The notes: generated by a model from the letters alone, not told the origin. Shown: positions 16,628 through 35,397, numbered from the stretch's first letter. The stretch is 64,000 bases of DNA from Candidatus Dormiibacterota bacterium (GCA_049644325.1 JBARRR010000041.1:11929-75928); one strand, 5' to 3'. Numbers and translations: made by a program.

Positions 16628-16628
16628 T

Positions 16629-18572: not shown

Positions 18573-18580
18573 GGGAGAGG

Positions 18581-19656: not shown

Positions 19657-19672
19657 TCTTTACCACCGACGC

Positions 19673-19749
19673 GGTGGCATTAGCTCAGTTGGTTAGAGTG
19701 CCAGGTTGTGGCCCTGGAGGTCGTGGGTTCAAATCCCACATGCCACCCA
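19673..19749 (+). tRNA. tRNA-His (anticodon GUG)
   Basis: Has the extra 5' G(-1), acceptor GTGGCAT/ATGCCAC, anticodon loop TTGTGGC and T-loop GGTTCAAATCC. Confidence 0.85.
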
Positions 19750-19766
19750 CCCGCCCGACCTGACCG

Positions 19767-20075
19767 TCAGGACGGCACGGGCGGGGCATCGGGGTCGCGT
19801 TTCCAGCCGCCCCGCTCGACCAGGCGCAAACCCAGCTCGCGCTGCGCCCGGTCGATCACAGAATCGAAATGCTTGGGCTCGCCCGGCTGACGGGTGACCT
19901 CGCGGTCGGCCCACTGGCCCTCGAAGCGGTCGAACCAGCCCTCGATCGCGGTGATCGGCTCGGAGAAGATGCGCAGCAGGGCGGCCTCCAGCTCCGGCGG
20001 GGCACCCTCGACCGTCAGGGGGTTCTCCTCGACCCGGACCCTGAGGTCCGCGGCGTTGCTGAAAATGGCCCACAT
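19767..20075 (-). CDS. hypothetical protein
   Basis: 102-aa ORF with coding-like composition. It forms a tightly spaced minus-strand trio with the next two genes. Confidence 0.4.
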   Translation of the reverse strand: MWAIFSNAADLRVRVEENPLTVEGAPPELEAALLRIFSEPITAIEGWFDRFEGQWADREVTRQPGEPKHFDSVIDRAQRELGLRLVERGGWKRDPDAPPVPS

Positions 20076-20084
20076 CGCTGGGTC

Positions 20085-20453
20085 TTACCCCTTGAGCTCG
20101 GCCTCGGCGTGCTGGTCCACCAGGGCCCGGCTGAGCGCGTCGACGGTGCGCCGGAAGGGTTCCGACTGGAACTCGTGGGCGGCCACCGCGAACTCCTCAG
20201 GGCTGTCGGGTGCGGCCACCTCCTCGGCCTCGCCCAGGTGCTTGCCGGTGAGGCGGGAGAAGGCGTCGACGCGGTAGAGGTAACGGCGCACGCCATCATC
20301 GTCGATCGCGCGCACCGTCGGGCGCAGCCGCAGCGCCGGGTGGCCGGTGTCCTCCAACTGGTAGATCACGCGCTGGCTTCGCTGCGAGGGCTCGTCGGGG
20401 ATGGTGTAGACGGCGCGCAGGCGTCGTTTGGGGGAAGGGAGCTGGTCGGTCAC
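20085..20453 (-). CDS. hypothetical protein
   Basis: 122-aa ORF located 10 nt upstream of the previous gene. Confidence 0.4.
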   Translation of the reverse strand: MTDQLPSPKRRLRAVYTIPDEPSQRSQRVIYQLEDTGHPALRLRPTVRAIDDDGVRRYLYRVDAFSRLTGKHLGEAEEVAAPDSPEEFAVAAHEFQSEPFRRTVDALSRALVDQHAEAELKG

Positions 20454-20463
20454 GTCCTGGGGC

Positions 20464-20817
20464 TTACTTGGCGGCCGATCCGAAGCCGGGACCGTGCACC
20501 GAGAAGACCGTGAGAGCCACGAAGAGAACGATCAGCAGGAGCATGAAGATGGCCGCGATGGCGAGGCCCACCGCCGCGTTGCTGGGCACCGGGCCTGAAA
20601 CCGGGGTCGGCCGGCGCCGCTTGGGCTCCCAACCGCCCTTGGCCACCGGCGACTTCGTGCTGACCACCGCCTGGGGTGGGCTGAGCTTCTTGTCGCAGTT
20701 GGGGCAGGTCAGCGAACCATGCTCGTCGGGGGGCAGGTCCGGGTCCACCAGCGCGACCAGGCCGCAGCGGCGGCACACCAAACGGGGAAACTGAGCCAGG
20801 TCGACGTATACCGGCAT
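20464..20817 (-). CDS. zinc-ribbon (CxxC...CxxC) protein with C-terminal TM helix
   Basis: 'CRRCG...CPNCDKK' zinc ribbon followed by a hydrophobic segment 'AAVGLAIAAIFMLLLIVLFVALTVF'. Confidence 0.5.
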   Translation of the reverse strand: MPVYVDLAQFPRLVCRRCGLVALVDPDLPPDEHGSLTCPNCDKKLSPPQAVVSTKSPVAKGGWEPKRRRPTPVSGPVPSNAAVGLAIAAIFMLLLIVLFVALTVFSVHGPGFGSAAK

Positions 20818-20881
20818 TGAGACGCCCCTGTTACCAGCCCGAGCGGGCGGAGTGGTCAGGCTTCCATTCTAAGATGAAGCG

Positions 20882-21832
20882 ATGAGCCTGGCCGTCAACC
20901 AACGCCAGCTGCCGGAGGCGGCCCGAATCCTGGGGCAGCTGACCGAGGCGGTGAGGGCGGCGGTGGTGCTCCGGGAGGACACCCTGCGCCTGGCCCTGGT
21001 GGGCCTTCTGGCCCGCGGCCACATACTCCTGGAGGACGTTCCTGGGGTGGGCAAGACCCTCCTGGCCCGGACCCTGGCCCAGGCCATCGGGGGCGAGTTT
21101 CACCGCGTTCAGTTCACCCCGGACCTGCTTCCCGCAGACGTCACCGGGGGCAACATCTTCGATCCCAAGTCCGCCGAGTTCCACTTTCGACCGGGCCCGG
21201 TCTTCGCCAACGTGGTCCTCGCCGACGAAATCAACCGGGGCACCCCTCGGGCGCAGTCCAGCCTGCTGGAGGCTATGGGCGAAGGGTCGGTGACCGTGGA
21301 CGGCACCACCCACCAGCTGCCCGACCCCTTCGTGGTGATCGCGACCCAGAACCCGATCGAGCAATACGGCACCTTCCCGCTGCCCGAGTCAGAGCTGGAC
21401 CGCTTCACGATGCTCCTGCGCGTGGGGCGCCCCAACGAGGAGCAGGCGCGGGAGATCCTCCGCCGCCACGAGCACGCCGAGCCGGCCCGCGACCGGGGCA
21501 GCGTCTGCGACCTCGACACCGTCCGGGCCGTCCAGCGCGAGGTGCTGGAGGTCCACGTCTCCGAGGCCGCCCGCGCCTACATCGCCGCGATCACCATTGC
21601 CACCCGGCAGCACCCCGGAGTCGGTCTCCCCGCCAGCCCCCGCGCCAGCGTCGCCCTGCTGCGGACCAGCCAGGCCACCGCCGTCTACCACGGCCGCGGC
21701 TGGGTCCTGCCTGACGACATCAAGGCGGTCGCCCCCGCCGTCCTCGGCCACCGCCTGGCGGTGAGCGCCACGGCGCCGGAGGAGACCGTAGCCGAGATCC
21801 TGGAAACGGTCCCGGTTCCACTCGACGTCTAG
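20882..21832 (+). CDS. MoxR-family AAA+ ATPase
   Basis: Walker A 'PGVGKT', Walker B 'VVLADEINR' and typical MoxR length. Confidence 0.9.
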   Translation: MSLAVNQRQLPEAARILGQLTEAVRAAVVLREDTLRLALVGLLARGHILLEDVPGVGKTLLARTLAQAIGGEFHRVQFTPDLLPADVTGGNIFDPKSAEFHFRPGPVFANVVLADEINRGTPRAQSSLLEAMGEGSVTVDGTTHQLPDPFVVIATQNPIEQYGTFPLPESELDRFTMLLRVGRPNEEQAREILRRHEHAEPARDRGSVCDLDTVRAVQREVLEVHVSEAARAYIAAITIATRQHPGVGLPASPRASVALLRTSQATAVYHGRGWVLPDDIKAVAPAVLGHRLAVSATAPEETVAEILETVPVPLDV

Positions 21833-22899
21833 TGACCCTGCGGCTCAGTCGCCGCCTCCCGGGCCTTCTGCTGGCGGCGTCCATCGTCTACCTGGTCGCC
21901 ACCAACTCGGAGGTGGTCTGGCTCTACGGCTTGACCGCCCTCCTGCTGGCCCTGCTCCCCGTCGGGTTGGTGGCGCCGCTGGTCGCGGTCAGACGCCTGC
22001 GGGTGAGTCCGACGCGGGTAACCAGCACCGGGTTCGTCCCGCCGCTGGCGCAGGATCGGGGCAAGATCTTCGACGGTGACACCGTCGCCGTGCGGCTGGA
22101 ATGCACCGGCAACATGGCGGCGTGCCGTTTTGTCAACGTCAAGCTTCGGGCGCCGCTGCGGACCGATCGAAGCGCCACGGTGACGCCGGTTGACAGCGAG
22201 ACCGATAGTGGCATTGAGCTTGGGCTCGCCGCCGAGGGGAGGGGAGTAGCCCACCTCGACGCCGTCCTCGTCTCCTCCAGCTGGCCGCTGGGAATTCTGG
22301 AGGCTCGGCGCTGGGTACCACTGGCAACCAGCTACACGGTCCATCCACGCTATGTGCTGCCGCCGGCGGAGACCGAGACCGGCGCCCAGGAGATGCTTGG
22401 CGAAGCGAGCATGCGCGGCCCGGGGGAGGAGTTTATCGGCCTGCGCGAGTACCAGCCGGGTGACAGCCAGCGCCGGGTCCATTGGCCCACCACCGCCCGC
22501 GCCGGCACCCTGATGGTGGTCGAAACCGCGGTGGAATCCCGCAGCCCCGCCCGCTATCGGGTCGAGGTCCCACCCAGCGCATCGGAGTCCGCCGCCGACC
22601 TCGCCGCCACCGTCGCAGCCAGCCTGGCCGCCGGCAGCGTAGCCGCGGGTCGCCCGTTCCGCCTGGAGATCCCCGCCGCCGCCCATGTGACCTCCAGATG
22701 GAGGGACGCCCTGGCCACGCTGGCGACGATGGCGCGAGGAGCCTCTGCCGCGGTCGCCGGCGACGCCATCGTGATCGCCGCAGGACCTGCTGGCGTCACG
22801 GTGGAGACACCTGGAGGCAGCCGCTGGCTGCCCGCCGACGCCTCGCTCGACGACGTGGCCGAGGCACTGGGGAGGAGACAGGAGCAAGCGCTGCCATGA
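21832..22899 (+). CDS. DUF58 domain protein (vWA-like, MoxR partner)
   Basis: 'REYQPGDSQRRVHW' DUF58 signature. The start codon overlaps the MoxR stop. Confidence 0.85.
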   Translation: MTLRLSRRLPGLLLAASIVYLVATNSEVVWLYGLTALLLALLPVGLVAPLVAVRRLRVSPTRVTSTGFVPPLAQDRGKIFDGDTVAVRLECTGNMAACRFVNVKLRAPLRTDRSATVTPVDSETDSGIELGLAAEGRGVAHLDAVLVSSSWPLGILEARRWVPLATSYTVHPRYVLPPAETETGAQEMLGEASMRGPGEEFIGLREYQPGDSQRRVHWPTTARAGTLMVVETAVESRSPARYRVEVPPSASESAADLAATVAASLAAGSVAAGRPFRLEIPAAAHVTSRWRDALATLATMARGASAAVAGDAIVIAAGPAGVTVETPGGSRWLPADASLDDVAEALGRRQEQALP

Positions 22900-24899
22900 G
22901 GTCGTGGCTCAGCGCGGCGCAGCAGCCCGAGGAGAGCCTGGCGGCCCGCGCCGCGGTCCTCGCCACCGCGGTCATTGCCGGCCTGGGGATGGTCCTTACG
23001 GCTGGCGCGCCCATCACGGTCGCGATATCGCTGGCGGTCGTCGTCGCCGGGCACGTGGTCAGCTGGCGCGGCCGCCACCGCCGCCGCACCATCCGTGGCC
23101 AGGCCGTTATCGGCGCGCTGATTGTCGCCTGCCTCACGTACCTGCTGCTGGACCTAATCCTGGCTGTGTTCGGCGGCGCCCTTCCCCAGGCGAAGTTCGC
23201 TGTGATGACGATGGCGGTCACCAGCTTCGACCTCAAGAGCCGCCGCAACCTCTTCAGCCACGTGTGGCACTCGGCGGCAATCCTCTACGTCGGGGCGCTC
23301 TTCGCCTGGGACTACGGCTACGTCGGCGTCCTGCTGCTCTGGGCGGCGGGTTTCTTCGCCTTCCTCCTCTTCACGCGAAAAGGGTCACGGGTTGTGACCA
23401 CTCGCGCTGCGGTCCGCAAGGCGCTGCTGTTCAGCGGCCGGCGCGCGCTGCCCTGGCTGTCGGTGTGGGTAGTGATCGGGGCCATATTGTTCGTGGGCCT
23501 TCCACGGGTGGCCGGCCGGCCGGTCGCGGTGCCGGTGCTGGTCAGCATCCCCCTCAGCCAGAACGCCAGCGGCGAGGTGCTGCCCGCCGTTCTGCCCCTG
23601 GTCGGAACCGCTCCCGAGGGCGGCCAGGAAGCCAGCATCAACCTTCGGGTCCGTGGGCGGCTGGGGGAGGAGGTGATGTTCCGCGTTCGCGCCCCAGCCT
23701 CGAGCTACTGGCGCTCGTACGTGCTGGAGAAGTACGAGGGCCAGTCCTGGTCGCGCGTTGCCCACCCGGCCAAGGTCATCCCCCCGATCAGCAGCGGCCT
23801 ACCGATCCGGGACGAGAACACCATCACCGGCCCTGGCCTGCCACAGACGTTCTACATCGAGCGTCCCCTGCCGGCTGAAGTGGTGGCCTCCTACCCGCTG
23901 CGGGAGCTGTACTTCCCAGCATCCGACCTGGTGCTGGTCGACAGCGGGATCGTCAACACCCCGTTCGGCCTGCGCAAGGGCGTCAACTACTCGGCCGTCT
24001 CCCAGGTGCGCGACCTCTCGCCCACGGCGCTGCGGGCGGCCAACCCACTCACCGGCCGGGAAGCGTCGGTCGACCTGCAGCTGCCCAGCGGGGTGCCATC
24101 CCGGGTACACGCACTGGCCCTGCGCCTCACGGCCGGACAGCCGACCGAGTACGACAAGGTGAGAAGCGTCGTCGACTACCTCCAGCAGGGCTATCCGTAC
24201 AGCCTCGATACACCCCGGCTTCCCAGCGGTGCCGACGCCGTCGACCAATTCCTCTTCGTTGACAAGGTCGGATTCTGCGAGCAGTTCGCCAGCGCCCTCA
24301 GCGTGCTGTTGCGCGAGGTGGGCATCCCCAGCCGGATGGCGATCGGGTACGGGACGGGCGACCACGACACCCTGACGGGTACCTTCACCGTCCGGGCCCG
24401 GGACGCCCACGCCTGGGTCGAGGTCCTCTTCCCGGGGGTTGGCTGGGTTCCATTCGACGCCTCGCCAGGCTTTGATTCGACGCCCTTCGCGCAAGCGCCG
24501 CCACGCTGGTTCCTGAGCGACTTCTCGCCCCAGGTGGCGTTGACGTCGCTGGGAGTGACGACGCCGCGCGCTCTGGGGTTGGGGCTGGGCGCGCTGGCCC
24601 TGGCTATTACGGCGCTGCTGGCTTTTTGGTGGCGACGGCGACGCCTGGTCGCGCCCGAGCTCCGCGCCTACCGCTGGGCCCTGCGCTGGGTGCGCTGGGC
24701 AGGGCTGCCCGATCGAGCGCCACCGCAGACACCAACCGAGCACTGGCGGGCGCTGCTGTCATTGTCGCCATCGGTGGCCGGCGCCCTGGCGCCGGTCCGG
24801 TCGGCGCTCGAGGAGGCGATCTACCGCGACTCACGCGGCCCGGCCGCCGGTCACTGGCGAGTGGCGGCGGCGGCGTTTCGCCACCGCATGGGACGCTGA
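22896..24899 (+). CDS. transglutaminase-like membrane protein (TgpA-like)
   Basis: Multi-TM N-terminus and a transglutaminase core 'GFCEQFASAL...HAWVEV...D'. The ATG at 22896 overlaps the DUF58 stop. The longer ORF from 22482 is a frame artefact. Confidence 0.85.
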   Translation: MRSWLSAAQQPEESLAARAAVLATAVIAGLGMVLTAGAPITVAISLAVVVAGHVVSWRGRHRRRTIRGQAVIGALIVACLTYLLLDLILAVFGGALPQAKFAVMTMAVTSFDLKSRRNLFSHVWHSAAILYVGALFAWDYGYVGVLLLWAAGFFAFLLFTRKGSRVVTTRAAVRKALLFSGRRALPWLSVWVVIGAILFVGLPRVAGRPVAVPVLVSIPLSQNASGEVLPAVLPLVGTAPEGGQEASINLRVRGRLGEEVMFRVRAPASSYWRSYVLEKYEGQSWSRVAHPAKVIPPISSGLPIRDENTITGPGLPQTFYIERPLPAEVVASYPLRELYFPASDLVLVDSGIVNTPFGLRKGVNYSAVSQVRDLSPTALRAANPLTGREASVDLQLPSGVPSRVHALALRLTAGQPTEYDKVRSVVDYLQQGYPYSLDTPRLPSGADAVDQFLFVDKVGFCEQFASALSVLLREVGIPSRMAIGYGTGDHDTLTGTFTVRARDAHAWVEVLFPGVGWVPFDASPGFDSTPFAQAPPRWFLSDFSPQVALTSLGVTTPRALGLGLGALALAITALLAFWWRRRRLVAPELRAYRWALRWVRWAGLPDRAPPQTPTEHWRALLSLSPSVAGALAPVRSALEEAIYRDSRGPAAGHWRVAAAAFRHRMGR

Positions 24900-25370
24900 A
24901 TGGCCAGCGACGACGAGCGCTGGATGAGCGAGGCATTGCGGATGGCGCGGCTTGCCGGGCGGCGGGGAGAGGTGCCGGTGGGCGCGGTGGCGGTTGCGGG
25001 CGGCCGGCGCCTGGCGGCGGCAGGAAACCGCATCGAGTCGACCGGCGATGCCACCGCGCACGCGGAGCTGCTCTGCCTGCGCGGGGCCTCGCGGATGCTG
25101 CGGCGCTGGCGCCTGAATGACGTCACGCTGTACGTGACGCTGGAGCCTTGCCCGATGTGCGCCTCGGCGATGGTGCTGGCGCGGCTGGGCCGGCTAGTGT
25201 ATGCCGCCGCGGATCCCAAGAAGGGCGCCGACGGGTCCGCCTACCGGCTCCTCGACCATCCCGCCAACAACCACCGGGTGCAGGTCACACGGGGCCTGAT
25301 GGAGGGGGAGGCGGGGGCGATGCTCAGCGACTTTTTCAAGGCCTTGCGCCGCGCTAGGAAGCCCGCCTAG
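24900..25370 (+). CDS. tadA: tRNA-specific adenosine deaminase
   Basis: Cytidine/deoxycytidylate deaminase zinc motifs 'HAE' and 'PCPMC'. Confidence 0.9.
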   Translation: MASDDERWMSEALRMARLAGRRGEVPVGAVAVAGGRRLAAAGNRIESTGDATAHAELLCLRGASRMLRRWRLNDVTLYVTLEPCPMCASAMVLARLGRLVYAAADPKKGADGSAYRLLDHPANNHRVQVTRGLMEGEAGAMLSDFFKALRRARKPA

Positions 25371-25405
25371 AACTGCTAACCTTCATGCCGCACCAGGCCT
25401 TCTCT

Positions 25406-25494
<89 letters not shown>

Positions 25495-25527
25495 CGACCG
25501 CCCGACTCCTTAGAATCGGGACCGCAC

Positions 25528-25618
25528 GGAGCGGTCGCCTAGTCCGGTCGAGGGCGCGGCACTGGAAATGCCGTAACGGGGGCAACCTCGTTCGAGGGTT
25601 CGAATCCCTCCCGCTCCG
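25528..25618 (+). tRNA. tRNA-Ser (anticodon GGA), integration target
   Basis: Acceptor GGAGCGG/CCGCTCC, anticodon loop CTGGAAA, long variable arm. Its 3' end is repeated three times downstream. Confidence 0.85.
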
Positions 25619-25684
25619 ATTGCCAACGCAAAATGGCTACGGTGTGGCATCTCTGCCGGCCTGCCGTGACCACTTCGGACGCAG

Positions 25685-27115
25685 TTGATTTATGGTGCAC
25701 ATCGAAACATGCGGATGGAGACTGACTATCTCGTCGTGGGAGCGGGCGCAAGTGGCCTCGCCTTCGCGGACACCCTGGTGGCCGAAGCGAATGTTGCGAT
25801 CACGCTCATGGACCGTCGCGAGACGCCGGGCGGCCATTGGCAGCAGGCGTACCCATTCGTGCGCCTGCACACGCCGTCGGCCTATTACGGGGTCAACTCA
25901 TTGGCCCTGGGCGACGATCGAATAGATCAGACTGGCGAGAACGCAGGCTTCTACGAACGGGCGACGGGAGGCGAGGTGCGTGAATACTTTGCCACAGTTG
26001 CCGAACGGCTCACCCAGACCGGCCGTGTCCACCTGCTCCTGCGCCACGAGCATCTGGGCGGCGGCCCTGACGGTGAGCAGGTCCGGGACCTTGCGACCGG
26101 AGAGGTCCACGACATCGGCGTGCGCCAAAAGGTCGTGGACGCCCGGTACCTGGAGGCGTCAATCCCGGCCACCAGCGTTCCTCCGTTCGAGGTTGCGCCA
26201 TCCGCACGAGTCGTCCCCGTCAACGACCTGCCGGAGATTACGCGACCGGGGGCCATGTACGCTGTCCTCGGATCGGGCAAGACGGCGGTCGACGCCTGCG
26301 TCTGGCTCCTGGACTACGGCGTTGAGCCAGATCGGATTCGCTGGATCAGGCCGCGTGACGCGTGGTTCCTCGACCGTCGCCATTTTCAGCCGCTAGACCA
26401 GGTGGCCGGGATCATGGAGGGCCTTGCCCTCGATGCCGAGGCCGGTGCCCTGGCATCGAACATCGACGATCTCGTCGAGCGCCTCGAGGACAGCGGTCGG
26501 CTCGTTCGCCTGGATTCTTCATCGTCGGCAACTATGTATCGCGGAACCATGCTCAGCTCCCGCGAGCTGGACGCCGTGCGCCAGATCAAGGACGTCCTGA
26601 GGCTCGGCCATGTTCGCAGGATCGAGGCTGACCGGATCCTGCTCGATCGCGGAGAGGCTCCGACCCGACCGGAGGTTGTGCATATCCACTGCGCGGCCCT
26701 CGGCTTGAACAACGCCCCAGGAACCCCCATATTTGAGCGGGGCAGGGTAGTGCTCCAGCAGGTGCGGCACAATTCGCCGTGCTTCAACGCAGCCCTCATC
26801 GCCTTCGTCGAGGCCCACCGCGATGAGGACGCGGCCAAGAACCGGCTCTGCCCGCCCAACCCGTACCCGAGCAGCATCGAGGACTGGCCGGGGATGATGG
26901 CCCGCACCTGGCGGGTTGAGAGCCGCTGGCTGCGCGAGCCCGACCTCTCGGCATGGGTGGCGGGCAGCCGGCTCAACTTGCTGCGCGACCTTCCCGAGCA
27001 CGCGGCCGAGCCGGCTGCCCAGGCGGCGGTCGAGCGCTTCGTCACGCATGTCCCGGCGGCGATTGAGAGACTAAAAGGTATGTCAGCCGAACTCGGCGGC
27101 ATGTTTGGTAACTGA
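25685..27115 (+). CDS. FAD/NAD(P)-binding oxidoreductase (flavin monooxygenase-like)
   Basis: N-terminal dinucleotide-binding 'YLVVGAGASGLAFA' and a second GxGxxA/G ('VLGSGKTAVDA'). Its stop codon TGA lies at the first base of att repeat 1. Confidence 0.7.
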   Translation: MIYGAHRNMRMETDYLVVGAGASGLAFADTLVAEANVAITLMDRRETPGGHWQQAYPFVRLHTPSAYYGVNSLALGDDRIDQTGENAGFYERATGGEVREYFATVAERLTQTGRVHLLLRHEHLGGGPDGEQVRDLATGEVHDIGVRQKVVDARYLEASIPATSVPPFEVAPSARVVPVNDLPEITRPGAMYAVLGSGKTAVDACVWLLDYGVEPDRIRWIRPRDAWFLDRRHFQPLDQVAGIMEGLALDAEAGALASNIDDLVERLEDSGRLVRLDSSSSATMYRGTMLSSRELDAVRQIKDVLRLGHVRRIEADRILLDRGEAPTRPEVVHIHCAALGLNNAPGTPIFERGRVVLQQVRHNSPCFNAALIAFVEAHRDEDAAKNRLCPPNPYPSSIEDWPGMMARTWRVESRWLREPDLSAWVAGSRLNLLRDLPEHAAEPAAQAAVERFVTHVPAAIERLKGMSAELGGMFGN

Positions 27116-27141
27116 GGGTTCGAATCCCTCCCGCTCCGATT
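27114..27141 (+). repeat. direct repeat 1 of tRNA-Ser(GGA) 3' end (att-like junction), 28/28 identical to 25591-25618 plus flank
   Basis: 'gagggttcgaatccctcccgctccgatt' is identical to the tRNA T-arm, acceptor 3' half and 3 flanking nt. Confidence 0.85.
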
Positions 27142-27208
27142 CTGCGCTCACAAAAGGCCGCTGCTGTGTAGTAAATGGCCGCCCCGCTCCCGGATCGATC
27201 CGCGTACT

Positions 27209-27655
27209 ATGCAGCTCATGGGTGGCGACGGAAACCGACAAGTGATCCAGAAGTACTGGCAAGCGGTCAACGTGCGCGACTTCGACAGCCTGGTGCAGCT
27301 CCTGCACCAGGATTTTGTGTGGGAGATGCCGCAGTCGGGTGAGCGGGTGCGCGGCCCCGAGAAGAACCGCGAGATGAACGCGAACTACCCATCCGGGCTG
27401 CCCGAGGTCGACGCGCATCGGATCACCGGCAGCCCGGATCAGTGGATCAGCACACCTAGCTGGACCGTCCTCAAGATCACAGGTTCCGGCGACGACTACA
27501 CCAGCGAGTCTCGGGTCAAATACCCGGACGGCAGCGTGTGGCACGCAGTGGACTTCTTCCGTTTTCGCGACGGCAAGATAGTCGCCCAGGTCGCCTATTT
27601 CGCACCGACACTTGATGCGCCCGAATGGCGGGCGCAATGGGTTGAGCGCTTCTAG
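27209..27655 (+). CDS. NTF2-like/SnoaL-like small protein
   Basis: 148 aa. The 'IQKYWQAVNVRDFDSLVQLLHQDFVWEMP' N-terminus is typical of SnoaL/ketosteroid-isomerase-like folds. It is the only gene between repeats 1 and 2. Confidence 0.55.
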   Translation: MQLMGGDGNRQVIQKYWQAVNVRDFDSLVQLLHQDFVWEMPQSGERVRGPEKNREMNANYPSGLPEVDAHRITGSPDQWISTPSWTVLKITGSGDDYTSESRVKYPDGSVWHAVDFFRFRDGKIVAQVAYFAPTLDAPEWRAQWVERF

Positions 27656-27736
27656 AGCCCTCGAGCCTGACTGCAGAACGCGCGCGGCTGAGGGGGGTGT
27701 CCTCGCTAGGCGATCTTGGCGCGGTAGTTTGCTGCT

Positions 27737-27761
27737 GAGGGTTGGAATCCCTCCCGCTCCG
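27737..27761 (+). repeat. direct repeat 2 of tRNA-Ser 3' end (1 mismatch)
   Basis: 'gagggttGgaatccctcccgctccg' is preceded by the same 'ctgagggtt' left flank as repeat 1. Confidence 0.8.
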
Positions 27762-27807
27762 CTCTAGCAGGGTGGGCGCCTGAAGCTCAGTTAAAATAAC
27801 GTCCGTC

Positions 27808-28272
27808 ATGCCCTACGCAGTGGATTTCAACGCGGTCTCAACCGACGGTCTGGAGTCGTCGCCAGTCGCTGCCGCGCTCGCAGGGCTGCGGGCGAACGAA
27901 GCCCGCTACTTCAGGAACAAGTACGACCACGGCTTCACGGTGGAGCCTGCGAGCAACGCCAAGACGACCATCGACTGGGTGCACCGGATCCTCAGAGAAG
28001 AGCGCGACATTGTCATCTCGTCTCGCCCCCTCGAGGCTTCTGCCTTTCAGATCGAGAACATCCGAATTGCCTACGTCTTCTACGAGAGCGGCCTGTCGAT
28101 CAACGTGATGTACACGGTCGACGACCCCAAGAAGCGGGCGGTTGGGTTCAAGCTATCCGAAGGGATGGAGATCCCCGCGGAGCTCGCTTCGCAGTTCAAG
28201 TTCGCGCGGCAGAAGTCGAAGCTGGCCGGAACCATCCGCGGTTCCTACTTCGACTTCAAGACTGAGTACTGA
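27808..28272 (+). CDS. hypothetical protein (lower-GC islet gene)
   Basis: 154-aa ORF with noticeably lower GC than its surroundings. Confidence 0.45.
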   Translation: MPYAVDFNAVSTDGLESSPVAAALAGLRANEARYFRNKYDHGFTVEPASNAKTTIDWVHRILREERDIVISSRPLEASAFQIENIRIAYVFYESGLSINVMYTVDDPKKRAVGFKLSEGMEIPAELASQFKFARQKSKLAGTIRGSYFDFKTEY

Positions 28273-28275
28273 CCT

Positions 28276-28755
28276 ATGGCTGAGAGGAAACCTGGAACAA
28301 AGGCCAGGCAGAAGTCCGCCAAGAGCACCACCACGGATGGCAAGACGTCCAAGAGATTCACCGACGAGGAACGAGCCGCGATGAAGCAGCGCGCCCAAGA
28401 GCTGAAGGCGTCCGCGCTCACGGCGGACGGGGAAAGCGACGTGCTCGCGAAGATCGCCGAGATGCCGGGACCGGATCGCGCCATGGCCGAGCGGATCCAC
28501 GCCATCATCAAAGCCAGCGCGCCGGTCCTCTCGCCGAGAACCTGGTACGGGCAGCCCGCGTACGCCATGGACGGCAAGGTCGTCTGCTTCTTCCAGAGCT
28601 CGCACAAGTTCAACACGAGGTACGCGACCCTCGGCTTCAACGAAGCGGCGAACCTCGACGAGGGCGCCATGTGGCCGGTCTACTTCGCTCTGACCGAGTT
28701 GACCGCCGCCGAGGAGGCAAGGATCGGCGCGCTCGTGAAGAAAGCGGTGAGCTGA
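28276..28755 (+). CDS. DUF1801/YdhG-like domain protein
   Basis: Basic N-terminal tail followed by a '[24 protein letters not shown]' core reminiscent of the YdhG/DUF1801 family. It starts 4 nt after the previous ORF. Confidence 0.45.
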
Positions 28756-28778
28756 GATCTGAGCCCTAAGCTGTCCCC

Positions 28779-30230
28779 ATGTCTGCGCCTCGGATCGTCG
28801 TCCTGGGGGCAGGCCCTGCGGGCCTGGCCACCGCCCTGGCGTTGGCGCGTCGGGGTCGCGCGGTAACGGTTCTTGATCGAGATCCCGACCAGCCTCTCGA
28901 CAACCCGGCAGATGCCTATGACACCTGGCACCGGCCAAGTGTCCCTCAGAGTCCTCTGCCTCATAGCCTCCTGGGACGAACACGGAGATCGCTCAGGCAG
29001 CACGCTCCAGATGTGCTCGACGGCATCCTGGCCGTCGGCGCTTGGGAGAACGACCTCGGGGCACGGCTCCTCAAGGAGGCGGCGCGCCCAGGCGACGAGG
29101 ACCTCGTCGCGCTGCATTGCCGGCGTCCGGTCTTCGAGGCGGTGCTCCGGCGGGCCGTCGCCCAGGAGCCCCTGGTCACCCTGATCCCCGAAGAGCCAGC
29201 GGTTGGGCTTGAGCTGCGGGGCTCCGGCGCGGCCAGGGTGACCGGCGTCAAGCTTGCCGACACGACCCTTGCAGCCGATGTTGTGGTTGACGCTTCGGGC
29301 CGTCGTAGCGCGGTCCCAAAGTGGCTGGAGGAGGCTGGGGTGGACCTCCCGCCCACGCGGTCGGAGCCGTGTGCCGTCGTCTACTACTGTCGCTACTTCC
29401 GGCTTGTCGACGGCGCCAACTACCCCGAGTGGACCGGCGTGCTGGGTCCGGCTGGAACCACGGACTGGGCGCGCTTCAGCGTCTTCTTCGGCGATAACCG
29501 AACCTTTGCGATCATCCTTGGGGTGCTCGCGACCGAGCAGCGTTTCAAGGCCCTCTCCCAGGATGCGGTCTACATGAGGGTCCTGCGGAGTTTCCGATCG
29601 GTCGCGCCTTTTCTGACGGATGACGTTGCCCAACCCACCACCGGGATTCTCCCGATGGGATCCCTGAGCAACGTATACCGTGGTCCACTCTTCGAAGGGC
29701 GTCCTCCGGCGCTGGGGCTCCACTTCGTCGGCGATGCCTACTGCCATACCAATCCTCTCTTCGCGTGGGGACTGTGCCTCGGCCTTGACCACGGCTTCGA
29801 GCTGGGCCGGATCATCGATGAACATGCAGGGGACTCGGAGAGTCAGGGGCTGGCGTTCGCGGCACTGACTGAAGTCGAGGCCGAGCAGTGCTACGAGGCC
29901 GTCGCCGAAGAGGACCACGACCGGACGCTCACCTGGAACGGCCAGCAACCAACGGGGCCGTGGTTGGGCCGTACCTTCGCCGGGTTCGTGCGGCAATGCG
30001 TGCTGCCCGCCGTGATGATCGACGCTGAGGTGGCTCGGTGCACGCTACGTCGAGTTAACCTGCTGGATCTACCGACCGAGCTCGCTGGTCGCGACGATGT
30101 CATCCGTCGCGTGACGGACCTCCAGGACGCCATTCCGCGGCCCCCGGATGGCGCATTCCCGAATCGTCAGGAAGTTCTTGAGCTGATCCAAGTATCCGAA
30201 AGCGCCCGTCGCCAAGGTCAGCTGACCTGA
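28779..30230 (+). CDS. FAD-dependent oxidoreductase/monooxygenase (geranylgeranyl-reductase/hydroxylase-like)
   Basis: 'IVVLGAGPAGLATALALARRGRAVTVLDRD' FAD-binding fingerprint and a 'DASG' motif. It ends 20 nt before att repeat 3. Confidence 0.7.
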   Translation: MSAPRIVVLGAGPAGLATALALARRGRAVTVLDRDPDQPLDNPADAYDTWHRPSVPQSPLPHSLLGRTRRSLRQHAPDVLDGILAVGAWENDLGARLLKEAARPGDEDLVALHCRRPVFEAVLRRAVAQEPLVTLIPEEPAVGLELRGSGAARVTGVKLADTTLAADVVVDASGRRSAVPKWLEEAGVDLPPTRSEPCAVVYYCRYFRLVDGANYPEWTGVLGPAGTTDWARFSVFFGDNRTFAIILGVLATEQRFKALSQDAVYMRVLRSFRSVAPFLTDDVAQPTTGILPMGSLSNVYRGPLFEGRPPALGLHFVGDAYCHTNPLFAWGLCLGLDHGFELGRIIDEHAGDSESQGLAFAALTEVEAEQCYEAVAEEDHDRTLTWNGQQPTGPWLGRTFAGFVRQCVLPAVMIDAEVARCTLRRVNLLDLPTELAGRDDVIRRVTDLQDAIPRPPDGAFPNRQEVLELIQVSESARRQGQLT

Positions 30231-30250
30231 GGCTGATGTTTCGCAACCAC

Positions 30251-30274
30251 AGGTTCGAATCTCTCCCGCATCCG
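30251..30274 (+). repeat. direct repeat 3 of tRNA-Ser 3' end (degenerate, oldest)
   Basis: 'aggttcgaatctctcccgcatccg' has about 4 differences from the tRNA end. It is followed by a 'caaccaaagctggttg' palindrome. Confidence 0.6.
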
Positions 30275-30332
30275 TTCGCCATAGACTACGGTCGCAACCA
30301 AAGCTGGTTGTGGCAGGCTGGGAGTTGATCGA

Positions 30333-30707
30333 ATGATGAAGACCTCGATGGTAGTCGCCACGATCCCCGTGACCGACCTTGACCGAGCCAAGCGCTTCTA
30401 TCAGGAGACGCTCGGTCTGGAGCTCCTTTGGGAGAGCCCGGCATCAGTTCGTTTTGGGTGCGGCGGCGGGACCGAACTCTCGATCTTCCGGCGCGGCCCG
30501 AGCACCGCCGATCACACCCTCGCCCACTTCGAGGTGGCGGATCTCGAGGCGCTTATTCGCGACCTTGAGAAGAACGGCGTCGAGTTCATCGACTATGCGG
30601 ATGGACCGTTGCAGACCACCGATCACATCGCACGGATCGGTCCGGCCCGGGGGGCGTGGTTCCGTGACCCGGACGGGAACACTTTGGGGCTTCGCCAGGC
30701 AGACTAG
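30333..30707 (+). CDS. VOC/glyoxalase-bleomycin resistance family protein
   Basis: 124 aa. 'RAKRFYQETLGLEL' and 'RDPDGNTLGL' are typical of the VOC fold. Confidence 0.75.
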   Translation: MMKTSMVVATIPVTDLDRAKRFYQETLGLELLWESPASVRFGCGGGTELSIFRRGPSTADHTLAHFEVADLEALIRDLEKNGVEFIDYADGPLQTTDHIARIGPARGAWFRDPDGNTLGLRQAD

Positions 30708-30761
30708 CCGTCGCGGGTTCGATGAGCCGCGCTGCCACAATGCGACGACAGGAGGAGTGCC

Positions 30762-31997
30762 ATGCGCAGGACCACGGTGGATGTCGCGATCGTCGGCGCC
30801 GGCCAGGCCGGGCTGTCGCTGAGCCATGAGCTAACCCGCGCTGGGGTGGAGCACGTTGTCCTCGAACGAGGCCAGGTGGGGGAGAGCTGGCGACGCCGCT
30901 GGGACAGCTTCCGACTGGTGGTCCCCAACTGGAGCGTCAAGCTTCCCGGCGGGGCCTACGAGGGGGATGAGCCGGATGGATACATGGCCAAGGCCGAAAT
31001 CGTCGATCACCTCGGCCGCTACGCCAACAGCTTCCGCGCCCCGGTGCGGGCGGGGGTGGAGGTCGGCGCGGTTACGCCGGGAGAGAAGGGCGGCTTCACC
31101 CTTGCGACCTCAGGCGGCGACATCGGCGCTAAGGACGTGGTCCTGGCATCCGGGGGTTACCAGCGGGCGCACCGGCCGGCGGTCGCGGGCCAGCTGCCGC
31201 ATGAGTCGCTCCTGGTGATCGACGCGGAGCACTACACCAACCCGGGCGCGCTGCCCGCCGGTGACGTCATGGTGGTGGGCAGCGGTCAGACCGGCTGCCA
31301 GCTGGCCGAGGAGTGCTTCGAGGCGGGGCGCAAGGTGTATCTTGCCTGTGGTCGAGCCCCATGGATGCCACGTCGGATCGAGGGTCGCGACGCCGTGGGC
31401 TGGATCCTCGACACCGGCTTCTACGAGGCTCGGCTCGCCGACCTCCCCAGCCCAGGCGTCCGTTACCTCTCCAATCCCCAGTTCACCGGGCACGGCGGCG
31501 GGCGCGATCTCAACTACCGCACACTGCAGACCCTTGGGGTCACGCTGGTCGGACGGTTCATCGGCACCGAGGACGGACGCGCGCACTTCGCCTCCGACCT
31601 CCAGGAATCGGTGGCCTTTGGAGACGCCCGCTACTCGGACCTGAGGGACCTGATAACCGCGAACTCACTGGCACGGTCGGTGCCCGCGCCGACGATGCCG
31701 GATCCGCCAACCTTCGAGGCCAATCCTCCCAGCAGCATCGAGCTGCGCAACCTGGGCGCGGTGATCTTCACCACAGGGTTTCGACCCGACTACTCAAGCT
31801 GGGTGCAGCCCTCCAACGCCTTCGACGAAGCCGGGTTCCCGATCCAGGTCGATGGCTCGAGCACGGTTGTTCCTGGCCTGCACTTCATGGGGGTGCATTT
31901 TCAGCGTAAACGCAAATCGGCAACCCTCTTCGGAGTCGCCGAGGATGCTGCCGTCCTGGCCGAACACCTAACCTCGCCTAGGAGGCCAGGCGGCTGA
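30762..31997 (+). CDS. flavin-containing monooxygenase-like NAD(P)/FAD oxidoreductase (CzcO-like)
   Basis: Two dinucleotide-binding motifs ('VAIVGAGQAGLS', 'VMVVGSGQTGCQ'). Confidence 0.7.
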   Translation: MRRTTVDVAIVGAGQAGLSLSHELTRAGVEHVVLERGQVGESWRRRWDSFRLVVPNWSVKLPGGAYEGDEPDGYMAKAEIVDHLGRYANSFRAPVRAGVEVGAVTPGEKGGFTLATSGGDIGAKDVVLASGGYQRAHRPAVAGQLPHESLLVIDAEHYTNPGALPAGDVMVVGSGQTGCQLAEECFEAGRKVYLACGRAPWMPRRIEGRDAVGWILDTGFYEARLADLPSPGVRYLSNPQFTGHGGGRDLNYRTLQTLGVTLVGRFIGTEDGRAHFASDLQESVAFGDARYSDLRDLITANSLARSVPAPTMPDPPTFEANPPSSIELRNLGAVIFTTGFRPDYSSWVQPSNAFDEAGFPIQVDGSSTVVPGLHFMGVHFQRKRKSATLFGVAEDAAVLAEHLTSPRRPGG

Positions 31998-32418
31998 ACC
32001 ATGGCCGGCGGCGCCGGTGCTGTTCGACCAGCATCTCCCTTCCCTCCAGGAAGCCGGCACGGATTTCGCTGTTGGCCGCCTCCAGCAGGACCGGGAAGTG
32101 GTTCTCGTGGCCTCGCCACCTCGCGAGCTCTCGACAGGCCGGCAGCTCCTGGGGCAGGAAGGCCGAAAGGGCAACTGCCAACGTTCCCTGGTGCTCCCAC
32201 GGGTCCAACGATGAATCGGGTGAGTTCACCGCTACATCCATACGAACCCAGGCCTGGGCGACCTCCTGCAGGGCGCGCAGGCGTTGGTGGAGCTGGTTGC
32301 TGCGGCTGACCGACCTCGCCTCCCGAACCGTCAGGTAGCCCATGCCAACTGCAAGCAGGCCGGCGACCGCGGCAATGGCCGCGGCGACGGTCGAGACAGC
32401 GAGCAGTGCGTGATCCAT
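31978..32418 (-). CDS. hypothetical membrane-anchored protein
   Basis: 146 aa with an N-terminal TM helix. It overlaps the 3' end of the FMO-like gene by 20 nt, so the call is uncertain. Confidence 0.35.
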   Translation of the reverse strand: MDHALLAVSTVAAAIAAVAGLLAVGMGYLTVREARSVSRSNQLHQRLRALQEVAQAWVRMDVAVNSPDSSLDPWEHQGTLAVALSAFLPQELPACRELARWRGHENHFPVLLEAANSEIRAGFLEGREMLVEQHRRRRPWFSRLAS

Positions 32419-32589
32419 CGGTTAGCAACGGTAGTGTGAAGGGCAATCCTTAGCAAATCGCCGTAACGCTCGTAACAACTCCGATAACACGAAGACACTT
32501 ACCTTCCGCGAGCTGACACCACCAGCGCCCCCCGGGCGTGCCAGACTCCGGACATGACGAGGGGACACGATTGAGCGGGGCGGGGGACC

Positions 32590-32967
32590 GTGGCTGACAT
32601 CAAGCGCTCCATGGAGACCTATACCCAAGCGTGGAACACCTCCGACCGCGATGAGTGCGTGCGGTTGCTCAATCAGTCCTGGGTCAGCCATGGCGAATTC
32701 CTGAATGCCATGCTGGACGCGCCGTTGGTCGGCGCCGAGCCACTGGCCACCTATATCGACCAGACCAACGCCCAATTTCCCGGTCACCGGACCGTCCTTG
32801 CCGGGGAGATCGTGGAGCACAACTCCTGTGCGCTCGTCTCGTGGCGGTACGTCGGCCCAGAGGGAATCGTGACCCTCGAGGGACAGAACTACGTTGAGCT
32901 CGACGAAAGCGGGCTGATCCGGCGTGTCGTGCAGTTCTTCCCGGTGACGCTGGCCGCGGATTCCTAG
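32590..32967 (+). CDS. NTF2-like/SnoaL-like small protein (second copy of this fold)
   Basis: 125 aa with an 'ETYTQAWNTSDRDECVRLL' N-terminus. Confidence 0.5.
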   Translation: MADIKRSMETYTQAWNTSDRDECVRLLNQSWVSHGEFLNAMLDAPLVGAEPLATYIDQTNAQFPGHRTVLAGEIVEHNSCALVSWRYVGPEGIVTLEGQNYVELDESGLIRRVVQFFPVTLAADS

Positions 32968-33333
32968 CCCAGGTAATAACCGGCGAAGGCGCGATCTGAG
33001 ATCGGCGCCTGCTATGCTTGACACGTCGCGGGCCAGAGGTCCGCTTGCGTCTCCAACGTTCCTTGAGCCCGGCCCATCGGCCGGTGGTCGTTCGGTCGCG
33101 ATTTCGAACTAACTCAAGGATGGAGATAGCTACATGACAGAACCACTCGAAGCTCAAGGCTTCCACGTGTCCGCAGTCGCGGGGACAACGACGCCAGGGC
33201 TCGGTTCGCATTCTTCTGCCCAGTTCGGGAGCACTGTGCCCCCGCTGGTCGCCGCCCCTGCGGGGCGGCCCGCAACCCATCGAGCTCGCGCCCTGAAGGC
33301 CGTCAGCTCCTATCCAACCATGGAGGTACCCCA

Positions 33334-33639
33334 GTGAGTTTCCAGGACCGAACCCTAACCTGTCGCGATTGCGGCCAACAGTTCACATTCACCAGCGGCG
33401 AGCAGGATTTCTACGCCTCACGCGGCCTGACCAATGACCCCAGCCGTTGCCCGGACTGCCGGGCGATCCGGCGCGGCCAGAGTGGTGGCGGTGGCGGTGG
33501 CGGCCGTACGCGCGAGATGTTCGACGTCGTTTGCAGCAACTGCGGCAAGGACACCCAGGTGCCCTTCCAGCCGACCTCGGGCCGGCCGGTGTACTGCAGC
33601 GACTGCTTTGCCCAGCAGCCCCGGAACAGCTACCGCTAG
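33334..33639 (+). CDS. four-CxxC zinc-ribbon protein (paralog A)
   Basis: CRDCG...CPDCR...CSNCG...CSDCF. A GGAGG Shine-Dalgarno sits 8 nt upstream of the GTG start. An internal (GGT GGC)n poly-Gly linker is present. Confidence 0.6.
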   Translation: MSFQDRTLTCRDCGQQFTFTSGEQDFYASRGLTNDPSRCPDCRAIRRGQSGGGGGGGRTREMFDVVCSNCGKDTQVPFQPTSGRPVYCSDCFAQQPRNSYR

Positions 33640-33642
33640 CCC

Positions 33643-33930
33643 GTGGCCAGTCGCGGAGTCGACGAAGTCCTGATGCCAGGCCAGGTCGCAGCCCTGCAGA
33701 AACGCATCGAGGTGCTGGTCCCCGACCGGGAGCGGCGTCTGCGCGACCTCCAGGCTGCAACTGAGGAGGCGGCCTCGATCTCGAAGGCGGGGGGTGACTC
33801 CCGCGGGGCGGAGCGTGCCCTCAAGCGCGCCGCACGGCTGCGCTCGGAGGCGGCTGCCATCACCAATGAGATGGCCACACTGGAGAGCCTGGTCGCCGCG
33901 CGACTGGCGCAATCGCCAAGACCGTACTGA
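33643..33930 (+). CDS. hypothetical coiled-coil protein
   Basis: 95-aa ORF located 4 nt after the zinc-ribbon gene. Confidence 0.35.
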   Translation: MASRGVDEVLMPGQVAALQKRIEVLVPDRERRLRDLQAATEEAASISKAGGDSRGAERALKRAARLRSEAAAITNEMATLESLVAARLAQSPRPY

Positions 33931-33992
33931 TCTCTCGCGGGGAGGCGGCTAGCATGCCGCTTCCCGCAGCGCGATCCCAGCGGGCGTAGCTA

Positions 33993-35072
33993 TCAGGATC
34001 TGATGGTTGCCGGGAGCCCGAGGAAGCCCCCGTAACGCCCTACCGCTGCCGCCAGGGCCCTCTTCTCAGGTGCCTTGAGCGCTCGGTAGGTGAAGGTATC
34101 GATGGTCACCGCGGCGTTCTCGACGGTGTGCCTCCAATGGCCGACCAGGTGTCCGTCGATGAGGATGGCATGGAAGTACGGCATCTCCGCGAAAGGCAAG
34201 GGTCCGTCGCTGCCGGCCTCGTGGAGGACGTCGCGGCTATCGCTGTAGCCCATGACGTACTCGTCATAGATCTGAACCATGTCGACCACCGGGGAGGGCG
34301 GATCAGCAGGTCGCGCCGAAGGCGCGAACCAGTAGGTGCGGCCCTCGACCACCTCTTGCTCGAGCTCCGCCTTGACCATCTCCAGGCCACGCCGCCCCTC
34401 GGCCGCGGTCAGGCTCGACCATCCCAGGTAGTCCTTGAGCGTCGCCGGGCCCCGGCTCACGAAGTACCGACGCGTGAGCTCGGCCAGGGCCACGTCTCGA
34501 TCCAGGCTCATCGCCCGGGGCGCGCGTTCGGCCAGGAGCGCGTAGGTCTGCTGCTTGCCGCGCATCGCGCCGCTGCAGATGACGGCGTTCAGCTCGGCGT
34601 TTATCAGGATGTAGCCGAGGCGCACCCCGGAGGCGACGATGCCGGCTCTGCCGAGGACGGCGCCCACCTCCTTGCGCGTCAGGTGCTGTCCACCGGCGAG
34701 CGCTCTGGCGATCAGCTTCGCCGACCTGTTGAGCAATGCCCGATCCAGCTCGGTCTGCCGGTACATGTAGGTGTTCAGAGCATGCACCCGGGGTGCCGTA
34801 ACCTCCAGCATCCACCGAATGTCGCCGGCCGTCACGAAATGCCACGTCGGGCGAAGCAGATGGGTCCGCAGGATACGGCCATCGCCGAGTGCGTCGTCGA
34901 TGGTGGCCACGCCGGGGTCGCCCGAGCGCTGCGCCAGCGACCACTTGGCGTACTGAAATTCCTGCGCTTGCATCGCCCCCAGCCGGCGCAGGGCCTCCTC
35001 CGGTCGTGCGCTGGGCACCCCCCAGAGGCCCTGGTTGTGGAGACGCCGCGACGCGATCTCAAGGCGGTTCAT
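33993..35072 (-). CDS. winged-helix DNA glycosylase-like protein (YcaQ/DUF1006 family)
   Basis: 'RLHNQGL...FQYAKWSLAQR...LRTHLLRPTWHFV' resembles the YcaQ family. The start is taken at Met 'MNRLEIAS'. Confidence 0.65.
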   Translation of the reverse strand: MNRLEIASRRLHNQGLWGVPSARPEEALRRLGAMQAQEFQYAKWSLAQRSGDPGVATIDDALGDGRILRTHLLRPTWHFVTAGDIRWMLEVTAPRVHALNTYMYRQTELDRALLNRSAKLIARALAGGQHLTRKEVGAVLGRAGIVASGVRLGYILINAELNAVICSGAMRGKQQTYALLAERAPRAMSLDRDVALAELTRRYFVSRGPATLKDYLGWSSLTAAEGRRGLEMVKAELEQEVVEGRTYWFAPSARPADPPSPVVDMVQIYDEYVMGYSDSRDVLHEAGSDGPLPFAEMPYFHAILIDGHLVGHWRHTVENAAVTIDTFTYRALKAPEKRALAAAVGRYGGFLGLPATIRS

Positions 35073-35397
35073 CGAGCAGAAGGTACCTTGGCGGAAGGTC
35101 CGCCAACAGTTCTTTGCATTTCTGCATTGCCGTGCCCCGGGCCGGGCACGTAGATTAGCGGCAGGAGATGAGGGACCGGGTTGTAATTCGCATTCCATCG
35201 CGCGAGTGGGCGGTTGACGCCATCGACGACCTGCGCTGTGAGGGTTTCGTCGCCACCCTCCTGGAGCCGGAGAGCTGCGACGGTCCCTGGCGCCTGCTGG
35301 TCGAGGGCCCGGCTGAGAAGATCGCCTGCATGCGCCAGGCCGCCCATGGTCCCATCCAGCCCTTCTGCTGGGAGACCTTCGTAAACCAGCCCACCGC

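Follow-up and report, generated by a model that had tools for sequence, protein, structure and literature searches.

Recombinase-less islets stacked behind a tRNA-Ser(GGA) gene in a Dormibacterota genome as probable remains of large serine recombinase elements

How does a transfer RNA (tRNA) gene come to be followed by several copies of its own 3' end, with a few cargo genes between one copy and the next and no recombinase gene among them? In this study, we addressed this question for a stretch of 64,000 nt from a Candidatus Dormiibacterota bacterium (GCA_049644325.1 JBARRR010000041.1:11929-75928), called the window below, in which a tRNA-Ser(GGA) gene (25527-25619, + strand) precedes three modules, A, B and C, of 1.5, 0.6 and 2.5 kb. 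Stacked islets without recombinase genes are a known structure at insertion hotspots. What is probably unusual here is a large serine recombinase (LSR) with its attachment site (attP) inside its own gene and a true tRNA gene as target. Our analyses suggested, with a probability of about 0.68, that the islets are the remains of LSR-family elements that inserted repeatedly into the 3' part of tRNA-Ser(GGA) and were then shrunk by deletion, their attP lying inside the 3' end of the LSR gene.

ARAGORN predicted two tRNA genes at the locus, tRNA-Ser(GGA), which forms the attachment site (attL), and directly upstream of it, as a context gene, tRNA-Ser(CGA) (25406-25493, +), which keeps its encoded CCA; the spacer between them is 33 nt long (25494-25526). 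Rfam regarded both as full tRNAs (55 and 54 bits, respectively) and gave no other tRNA-like match in 25000-31000. The 28-mer at the end of tRNA-Ser(GGA) (GAGGGTTCGAATCCCTCCCGCTCCGATT, 25594-25621) recurs in a second exact copy (28/28) at 27114-27141 (repeat 1, +), the junction of modules A and B. Repeat 2 (27737-27761, +, the match extending over 27737-27764) agrees at 24 of 25 positions, with a single mismatch in the first 25 nt, and repeat 3 (30250-30274, +), the outermost, is decayed, showing a C>T change, an inserted A and changes at its 5' edge; its complete copy is CAGGTTCGAATCTCTCCCGCATCCG, and the 18-mer GGTTCGAATCYCTCCCGC also matches 30252-30269. All copies are in direct orientation, and repeats 1 and 2 have the left flank ctgagggtt in common. 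No match to the tRNA-end repeat appeared in 100 dinucleotide shuffles, and a profile of the repeat detected no additional copy in the 64 kb, decayed copies beyond 30290 included. The three direct copies, the module sizes and the common flank, as described in an earlier sequence-only reading of this DNA, were thus confirmed. In addition, tRNA-Ser(GGA) ends in GCTCCG-ATT in the window, not in the native GCTCCG-CCA, and its 3' portion therefore came from an inserted element. Since CCA is no longer encoded after the insertion (25619-25621), maturation of this tRNA must use the CCA-adding enzyme.

A tadA-anchored scan assigned the window to Candidatus Dormibacterota and located relatives, which differ exactly at the window array. 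L001 and an independent metagenome copy, L105, are ∼94% identical in nucleotides to window 14905-25645, that is, to 26 nt past the tRNA, and then diverge: there follow a 105-aa open reading frame (ORF), a tRNA-end repeat of their own, a 131-aa ORF and a DUF1801 gene, and then the sequence of window 30312 onward, without modules A and B, a 154-aa gene, or the unit of FAD2 (a flavoprotein gene of module C) and repeat 3. The locus of L109 (tadA identity 83%) holds the tRNA and four repeats; one module has three genes and another four (a toxin/immunity set), and the remaining two contain an NTF2 pseudogene and a GMC oxidoreductase, respectively. Some of these genes are on the minus strand, and the first repeat after the tRNA, r1, carries the native trailer CCATAG. 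In L113 (78%), one 1.2-kb module with an alcohol-dehydrogenase gene ends in a repeat with the near-native trailer CCCATAGA (native CCATAGA), while in L107 (84%; a 2.7-Mb contig) a 9.2-kb element separates the tRNA from a repeat with the native CCATAG trailer GCTCCGCCATAGCA behind it. The tRNA-Ser(GGA) of L004 and L008 is unoccupied and has the native encoded CCA (GCTCCGCCA). Thus flanks of the native CCA type occur in L004 and L008, replaced flanks in the window, L001, L003, L005, L107, L109 and L113, and the site is occupied with differing contents in the window, L001/L105, L107, L109 and L113, the relatives having from one to four downstream repeats. These comparisons show a fast-changing, site-specific insertion hotspot. 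The sequence-only reading had proposed a stacked hotspot of this kind and had suggested that close relatives would reveal modular insertion, as L001/L105, L109, L113 and L107 do alongside the unoccupied L004 and L008; the identical 4.7-kb arrangement in all relatives that it had named as evidence against itself is contradicted by L001, L105, L109 and L113. Against the distant relatives L004 and L008, tblastx synteny 3' of the tRNA gave noise only; the tRNA is a synteny break, and the ancestral flank is therefore not definable. Exact sequences of the window's tadA and 154-aa protein are not on record, so that the comparison is not one within a species.

The same material bears on whether the repeats are fragments of tRNA pseudogenes that duplication has dispersed, or tRNA-like RNA signals that function in processing or termination at the 3' ends of the cargo, an explanation that we consider barely conceivable. 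The T-arm hairpin is kept in the repeats, and those of the window stand shortly 3' of the last ORF of each module in the same orientation, as RNA signals might. Yet Rfam found no tRNA-like match at the repeats, and, because it reported only two real tRNAs, the copies are not tRNA pseudogenes. Moreover, no terminator-like sites were found at the repeats, the minus-strand genes of L109 do not suit an RNA signal, and the copies are flanked by arms that are not tRNA sequence and that have a coding signature on the opposite strand (see below). The native trailers behind the outer repeat of L107 and r1 of L109, and the near-native one behind the repeat of L113, are what marks a displaced tRNA end.

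To the left of the tRNA-derived core, ∼31 nt (the P arm) are common to all nine attR-type copies in four genomes, with a consensus of roughly tCAGCcGAACTCcGg..aTaGTTwGGTAACC that has no match in the target gene. The related attP sequences that had been proposed for the first two junctions from their flank ctgagggtt are thus supported, the common flank reaching much further than was first noticed. To the right of the core, ∼30 nt are common to several modules (ATTGYYAWCGCRAAATGGCTACGGTGTRGC behind the tRNA of the window, the tRNA of L001 and repeat 2 of L109); in the window, this P' arm is ATTGCCAACGCAAAATGGCTACGGTGTGGCA (25619-25649, +), the conserved left end of modules, which also stands behind the tRNA of L001/L105 and at L109_r2. 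Between attR-type copies and the tRNA, differences occur only at core positions 1-12, and positions 13-25 are identical unless the copy is visibly decayed; exchange would therefore take place at or 3' of the last T-loop base. The copies also allowed the proposed fall of identity with age to be judged. It holds for repeat 3, which is genuinely decayed, but the C>G variant of repeat 2 (GGTTGGAAT) is also present in L001 repA and L109_r1, and is therefore an inherited attP variant and not post-insertion decay. The right flank of repeat 3 (30275-30317, +) can be likened to the native tRNA trailer (CGCCATAGA) and also to a P' arm that has been shortened, which makes the outer limit of the window array ambiguous.

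The P arm reads as the end of a gene on the opposite strand. Translated antisense in the frame in which the core encodes EREGFEP, six copies contain 10 further residues and a stop at the same codon (SVTKHAAEFG, SAANYRAKIA, SVTKYVTDFA, LVTKYLAEFG, LVANYRPEFS and LVTIYRAELA, each followed by the stop). The position of the stop codon is fixed and its identity varies among TGA, TAG and TAA, and pairwise differences at codon positions 1, 2 and 3 numbered 61, 39 and 95; a fixed stop of variable identity together with the excess at third positions indicates that the P arm is a protein-coding 3' end. In the window, P arm 1 (27083-27113, -) encodes SVTKHAAEFG with a TGA stop and P arm 2 (27706-27736, -) SAANYRAKIA with TAG. 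P arm 3 (30218-30249, -), encoding VVAKHQPQVS with TGA, was read by hand, since the indel in its core shifts the frame and the fixed core frame misses the tail.

Which gene this was is suggested by the relatives. A homology search with the LSR of L107 returned three related proteins (P0122-P0124), and these LSRs all have Resolvase, Recombinase and Zn_ribbon_recom domains; P0124 also matches a solved chain deposited as 'Integrase'. The C-termini of P0123 and P0124, ...GAEREGFEPS(K/R)RV(N/D)P.YRISSAAPS, are the antisense translation of tRNA-Ser(GGA). Accordingly, the P0124 gene in L115 (908-2458, +) overlaps a bona fide tRNA-Ser(GGA) (2378-2469, -), and the P0122 ORF of L114 contains the core, in another frame. 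LSR genes stand beside the att site only in relatives (L115, L107, L114 and the P0123 locus), and remnants of them in L109 and L113. The remnant of L109 (17143-17459), in the antisense frame 5' of the fourth repeat, is a frameshifted LSR C-terminus with 37-52% identity to the LSRs of L107 and P0122-P0124, and in L113 ∼50 codons of the same C-terminal region adjoin the tRNA (∼2841-2986). Together with the window and L001, they form a series of remnant lengths of ∼320 nt (L109), ∼150 nt (L113) and at most 30 nt (window, L001). The P' arm of module A, which reads antisense ..TVAILRWQS ahead of EREGFEP, was compared with the LSR remnants, which read ..AEIMECWVGS ahead of EREGFEP; that it is likewise a remnant of recombinase C-terminal coding sequence is plausible rather than proven. 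A search of viral contigs returned no relatives of the LSR.

In addition to the LSR, the element of L107 (10719-19950, 9.2 kb) encodes a small resolvase of 221 aa and a protein of 468 aa that has a weak Toprim domain and may be a primase, and it is a candidate for an intact family member. The 468-aa ORFs beside the LSRs in L107 and L114 are unrelated and so give no grounds for a conserved integration module.

The sequence-only reading had ascribed the insertions to tyrosine integrases, and serial insertion by such enzymes, in the class that uses the T-loop sublocation, followed by loss of the integrase genes, has to be weighed against the LSR. The great majority of islands in tRNA genes are elements with a tyrosine integrase (PMC4383910), the break in identity close to the T-loop suits a sublocation known for these enzymes, and the conserved arms (∼30 nt on each side) exceed the roughly 50-bp minimal sites of LSRs. 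Nevertheless, no tyrosine recombinase gene (PF00589) was found in or beside the five arrays examined; the window has just one, a Xer-like gene at a distance of 29 kb. Furthermore, the left flanks are, on the antisense strand, the 3' end of a gene that runs across attP, this gene is an LSR in relatives, and LSR genes overlap tRNA-Ser(GGA) in L115 and at the P0123 locus. A tyrosine integrase is thus probably not the enzyme, and we consider this explanation very unlikely.

Under the LSR explanation, the array would have formed as follows. An incoming element would recombine with the tRNA gene at or 3' of the last T-loop base and bring a new tRNA 3' end (CCCTCCCGCTCCG, then ATT in place of CCA), and the old end would be displaced outward behind the P arm of the element. 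The next element would enter the regenerated tRNA, so that the newest module adjoins it. Illegitimate deletions after insertion would have removed the recombinase gene and most of the content, so that each module would now consist of a P' stub no longer than ∼30 nt, one to three cargo genes and the ∼31-nt P arm, which would be the orphaned last 10 codons and stop of the recombinase gene.

Several points weigh against this explanation. First, tblastn detected no LSR gene or recognisable remnant longer than ∼10 codons in the window, and the link to an LSR comes from the arms and the relatives. Second, no intact LSR with the predicted tail, EREGFEP(S/L)V.. followed by a stop, was encountered; the versions found are integrated or differently framed. 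The LSR of L107 lies at the opposite end of its element, where its frame runs through the core in sense orientation; the family therefore comprises at least two layouts and is not uniform. Third, the dyad symmetry of the reconstructed attP, 11-13 of 24 positions at best, does not exceed that of shuffled sequence (mean 11.8). Fourth, the comparison with L001 cannot tell a loss of FAD2 and repeat 3 there from a gain in the window. Fifth, the ends of three independent P' stubs, at 22-33 nt beyond the core, are unexpectedly uniform for random deletion, and the sites could still be in use. Finally, that tyrosine integrases are found at most tRNA-gene islands is a strong prior.

The cargo of the modules was examined for signs of the deletional decay that the LSR explanation supposes. 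Pfam confirmed the families that had been claimed: module A carries FAD1, an NAD_binding_8 flavoprotein (25709-27115, +), module B a SnoaL/NTF2-like protein (SnoaL_2; 27209-27655, +), and module C a DUF1801-like gene (28276-28755, +; a weak match), which is common to L001/L105 (82% aa and 85% nt identity), and FAD2, a DAO-type FAD oxidoreductase (28779-30230, +), whose stop codon lies within P arm 3. Ahead of these two, a single-gene unit (27773-28276, +; ORF 27808-28272) encodes the 154-aa protein, which belongs to no known family. FAD1 and FAD2 have no homology to each other, and the modules are therefore not duplicates. No mobility gene had been noticed in the modules, and in agreement with this their ORFs have no recombinase domain in Pfam and tblastn with serine recombinases gave no match in the window; with no recombinase gene in 25620-30274, the islets carry no integrase of their own. 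Homologs of FAD1 with 89-92% nucleotide identity occur in seven other contigs (GC 0.63-0.66, against 0.68 in the window), in unrelated gene neighbourhoods and with no att sequence nearby, and its nearest proteins come from Dormibacterota genome bins. The homology is restricted to window 25699-27088: FAD1 is without its native ribosome-binding site, P-arm sequence stands in place of its 12 final native codons and the C-terminus is diverged, and the 3' junction coincides with 6 nt (TCAGCC) of microhomology to the P arm. By these comparisons, FAD1 is an ordinary chromosomal gene that was captured. The modules had been described as possible fossil elements, which fits both this microhomology deletion junction and the decay series of recombinase remnants in relatives. 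Deletion is also evident outside the modules, since window 32489-32926 and 34016-35083 correspond to internal deletions in L001 (at 14590 and 15678) in a SnoaL-like gene and an AlkZ-like DNA glycosylase gene; L001 keeps both ends of each gene, so deletion is active in this region, and insertions in the window at these two places were ruled out.

Alternatively, the modules might be cassettes that are still mobile, as cis-mobilizable elements (CIMEs) or an integron-like array, moved in trans by an LSR encoded elsewhere through kept P and P' half-sites. Both arms are kept in every module, and three P' stubs (module A, L001 and L109_r2), whose cargo junctions differ, all stop at 22-33 nt from the core, which suggests selection for a recombinase half-site. 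The modules are often single genes in the orientation of the tRNA. Exchange is suggested as well: the NTF2 module, homologous over its entire att-to-att length to L109 14801-15466 (52% identity in tblastn; alignment), occupies different array positions in the two genomes; the 154-aa unit (505 bp) is ∼93% identical in nucleotides to L109 10352-10813 and has other neighbours there on either side, the tadA proteins being only 83% identical; and the content from tRNA to DUF1801 gene is wholly replaced between genomes that are ∼94% identical. Against mobility, there is no LSR in the 64 kb, and the loss of the ribosome-binding site and C-terminus of FAD1 at a microhomology is like random deletion and unlike precise capture. 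Moreover, the 505-bp unit is not flanked by att sites in L109, and the empty site of the FAD2 and repeat 3 indel in L001 retains no att copy. Circular and empty-site forms were likewise not seen. We therefore hold this alternative to be possible but doubtful. A more specific proposal, that an LSR with attP in its own 3' end acts in trans and makes the tRNA-Ser(GGA) array an integron-like cassette platform of Dormibacterota run by a serine recombinase, seems to us unlikely.

The resemblance to integrons lies in the arrays, which adjoin a fixed primary site, are one-directional and consist mostly of modules with a single gene and no promoter that each end in a recombination site. Unlike integrons, however, the locus has no IntI, attC hairpins or attI/Pc, its repeats are tRNA 3' ends with recombinase-gene tails, and the trimming is like random deletion. 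An integron proper was rejected, there being no IntI beside an attI and no attC, and the upstream genes being tadA and then tRNA-Ser(CGA). The sequence-only reading had also likened the modules to miniature inverted-repeat transposable elements (MITEs) and to integrative mobile elements exploiting Xer (IMEX). Both analogies fail: the modules carry ORFs and are bounded by direct repeats, without terminal inverted repeats or target duplications, and the repeats are the T-arm and acceptor strand of a tRNA at a tRNA gene, a site that is not dif-like as XerCD/dif elements require.

Among described systems, the closest is that of the ssrA islands of Dehalococcoides (McMurdie et al. 2011), which stand in tandem, are bounded by 20-bp repeats of the ssrA 3' end and have a conserved 15-bp non-target motif 5' of each repeat, and for which T-loop insertion was inferred (PMC3146451). 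Their DsiB, a serine recombinase of roughly 540 aa, is encoded on the reverse strand beside attL together with a small serine recombinase (the DsiB/DsiA module), and 15 islands without an integration module were proposed to be cis-mobilizable elements (PMC3146451). The tandem islands 3' of a tRNA or tRNA-like gene, the direct repeats of the gene end and the insertion in the T-loop region are alike in both systems, and so is a conserved non-target motif directly 5' of each repeat, here the ∼31-nt P arm in nine copies. The reverse-strand LSR beside attL in L115, with the remnants in L109 and L113, matches the description of DsiB, the L107 element also has a small (221-aa) serine recombinase as in the DsiB/DsiA pair, and islands without an integration module are found in both. 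Chloroflexota, the phylum of Dehalococcoides, is the neighbour (sister) of Dormibacterota. In contrast to the tmRNA target of Dehalococcoides, the target here is a true tRNA gene, tRNA-Ser(GGA); attP would lie inside the recombinase ORF, so that ∼17 terminal codons are exchanged upon integration; the modules, of 0.6-2.5 kb and often with one gene, are far smaller and without reductive dehalogenase cargo; and no six-gene integration module was seen.

Two further kinds of element are comparable. In CIMEs and in the accretion of integrative and conjugative or integrative and mobilizable elements, decay is followed by new integration at the same target (PMC5704250). Like CIMEs, the window modules keep attL/attR-type bounds, have lost integration and transfer genes and stand in tandem at one target gene; those described, in contrast, are mostly of tyrosine-integrase type, from Firmicutes and several kb or more in length. 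Islander-type islands (PMC4383910) likewise have an intact tRNA gene with a displaced direct 3' fragment, a restored tRNA and tandem arrays, but the recombinase associated with the present locus is probably an LSR and the window islands are without their own integrase. At the time of the Islander paper, no serine recombinase was known to use a tRNA gene as its target (PMC4383910); later work is not covered by that statement.

If the LSR assignment is true, a true tRNA gene is added to the targets of LSRs, a combination that the island-mapping resource called unknown (PMC4383910), and the model of the Dehalococcoides ssrA islands extends to a sister phylum of uncultured soil bacteria. The locus would also offer a compact natural attB/attP pair (the tRNA 3' end, and an attP in the integrase ORF) as a possible integration tool, and tools that need one tyrosine integrase per island would miss such hotspots. 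If nothing beyond the fossil interpretation is true, the locus is of an ordinary and well-documented type. It exemplifies the shrinkage of mobile elements to single-gene islets, with seemingly decaying repeats that form a record of differing attP variants.

Around the array, the genes upstream of the tRNAs are tadA (a deaminase), a transglutaminase gene and a MoxR-type ATPase gene. GC content at third codon positions (GC3) is 0.88-0.94 in the backbone, compared with 0.75-0.88 across 25.7-35.2 kb. To the right of repeat 3, window 30300-35200 contains a glyoxalase, a flavin monooxygenase, small ORFs and the AlkZ-like gene, with GC3 of 0.78-0.82 and no detectable att copy, and this may be an older, wholly eroded stretch of the array. 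The sole recombinase gene in the 64 kb (59072-60070, -), 29 kb from the array, encodes a 332-aa tyrosine recombinase with Phage_integrase and Phage_int_SAM_1 domains and looks like a housekeeping XerC/D. Two sub-threshold Rfam matches to RF04351 (25447-25618 and 27071-27138, -), antisense to the tRNA-Ser genes and repeat 1, are probably an artefact; this family represents the plastid psbI-rps4 3' untranslated region and may include an antisense trnS.

Scans with the repeat and left-flank pattern in viral and metagenome sequences yielded no Dormibacterota cassettes and were therefore uninformative. In the metagenomes it matched 23 loci, nearly all of them true tRNA-Ser genes of unrelated organisms, and among the viral sequences one unrelated low-GC contig. 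That IMG/VR contig, L081 (GC 0.38), contains a fragment like the 3' end of tRNA-Ser (TTTGATGATGAGGGTTCGAATCCCTCCCGCTCTG, 3440-3469) and no tRNA gene; the fragment may be a phage attP for the tRNA-Ser site of a low-GC host. On an unrelated soil contig (L100), a tRNA-Ser(GGA) at 2-92 and a displaced 3' fragment at 11886-11914 are 11.8 kb apart, and another (L103) has a lone similar fragment at 268-296, with no tRNA found on the contig; tblastn detected no LSR in either.

The neighbouring tRNA gene shows changes of its own. In several relatives, the spacer between tRNA-Ser(CGA) and tRNA-Ser(GGA) is enlarged to 0.5-1.9 kb (L109 8835-9497; L113 2258-2788; L003/L004), with an ORF of 130 aa in L109 and a SnoaL-like one in L113, and the tRNA-Ser(CGA) of L107 is without an encoded CCA. 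tRNA-Ser(CGA) may thus be a second insertion site.

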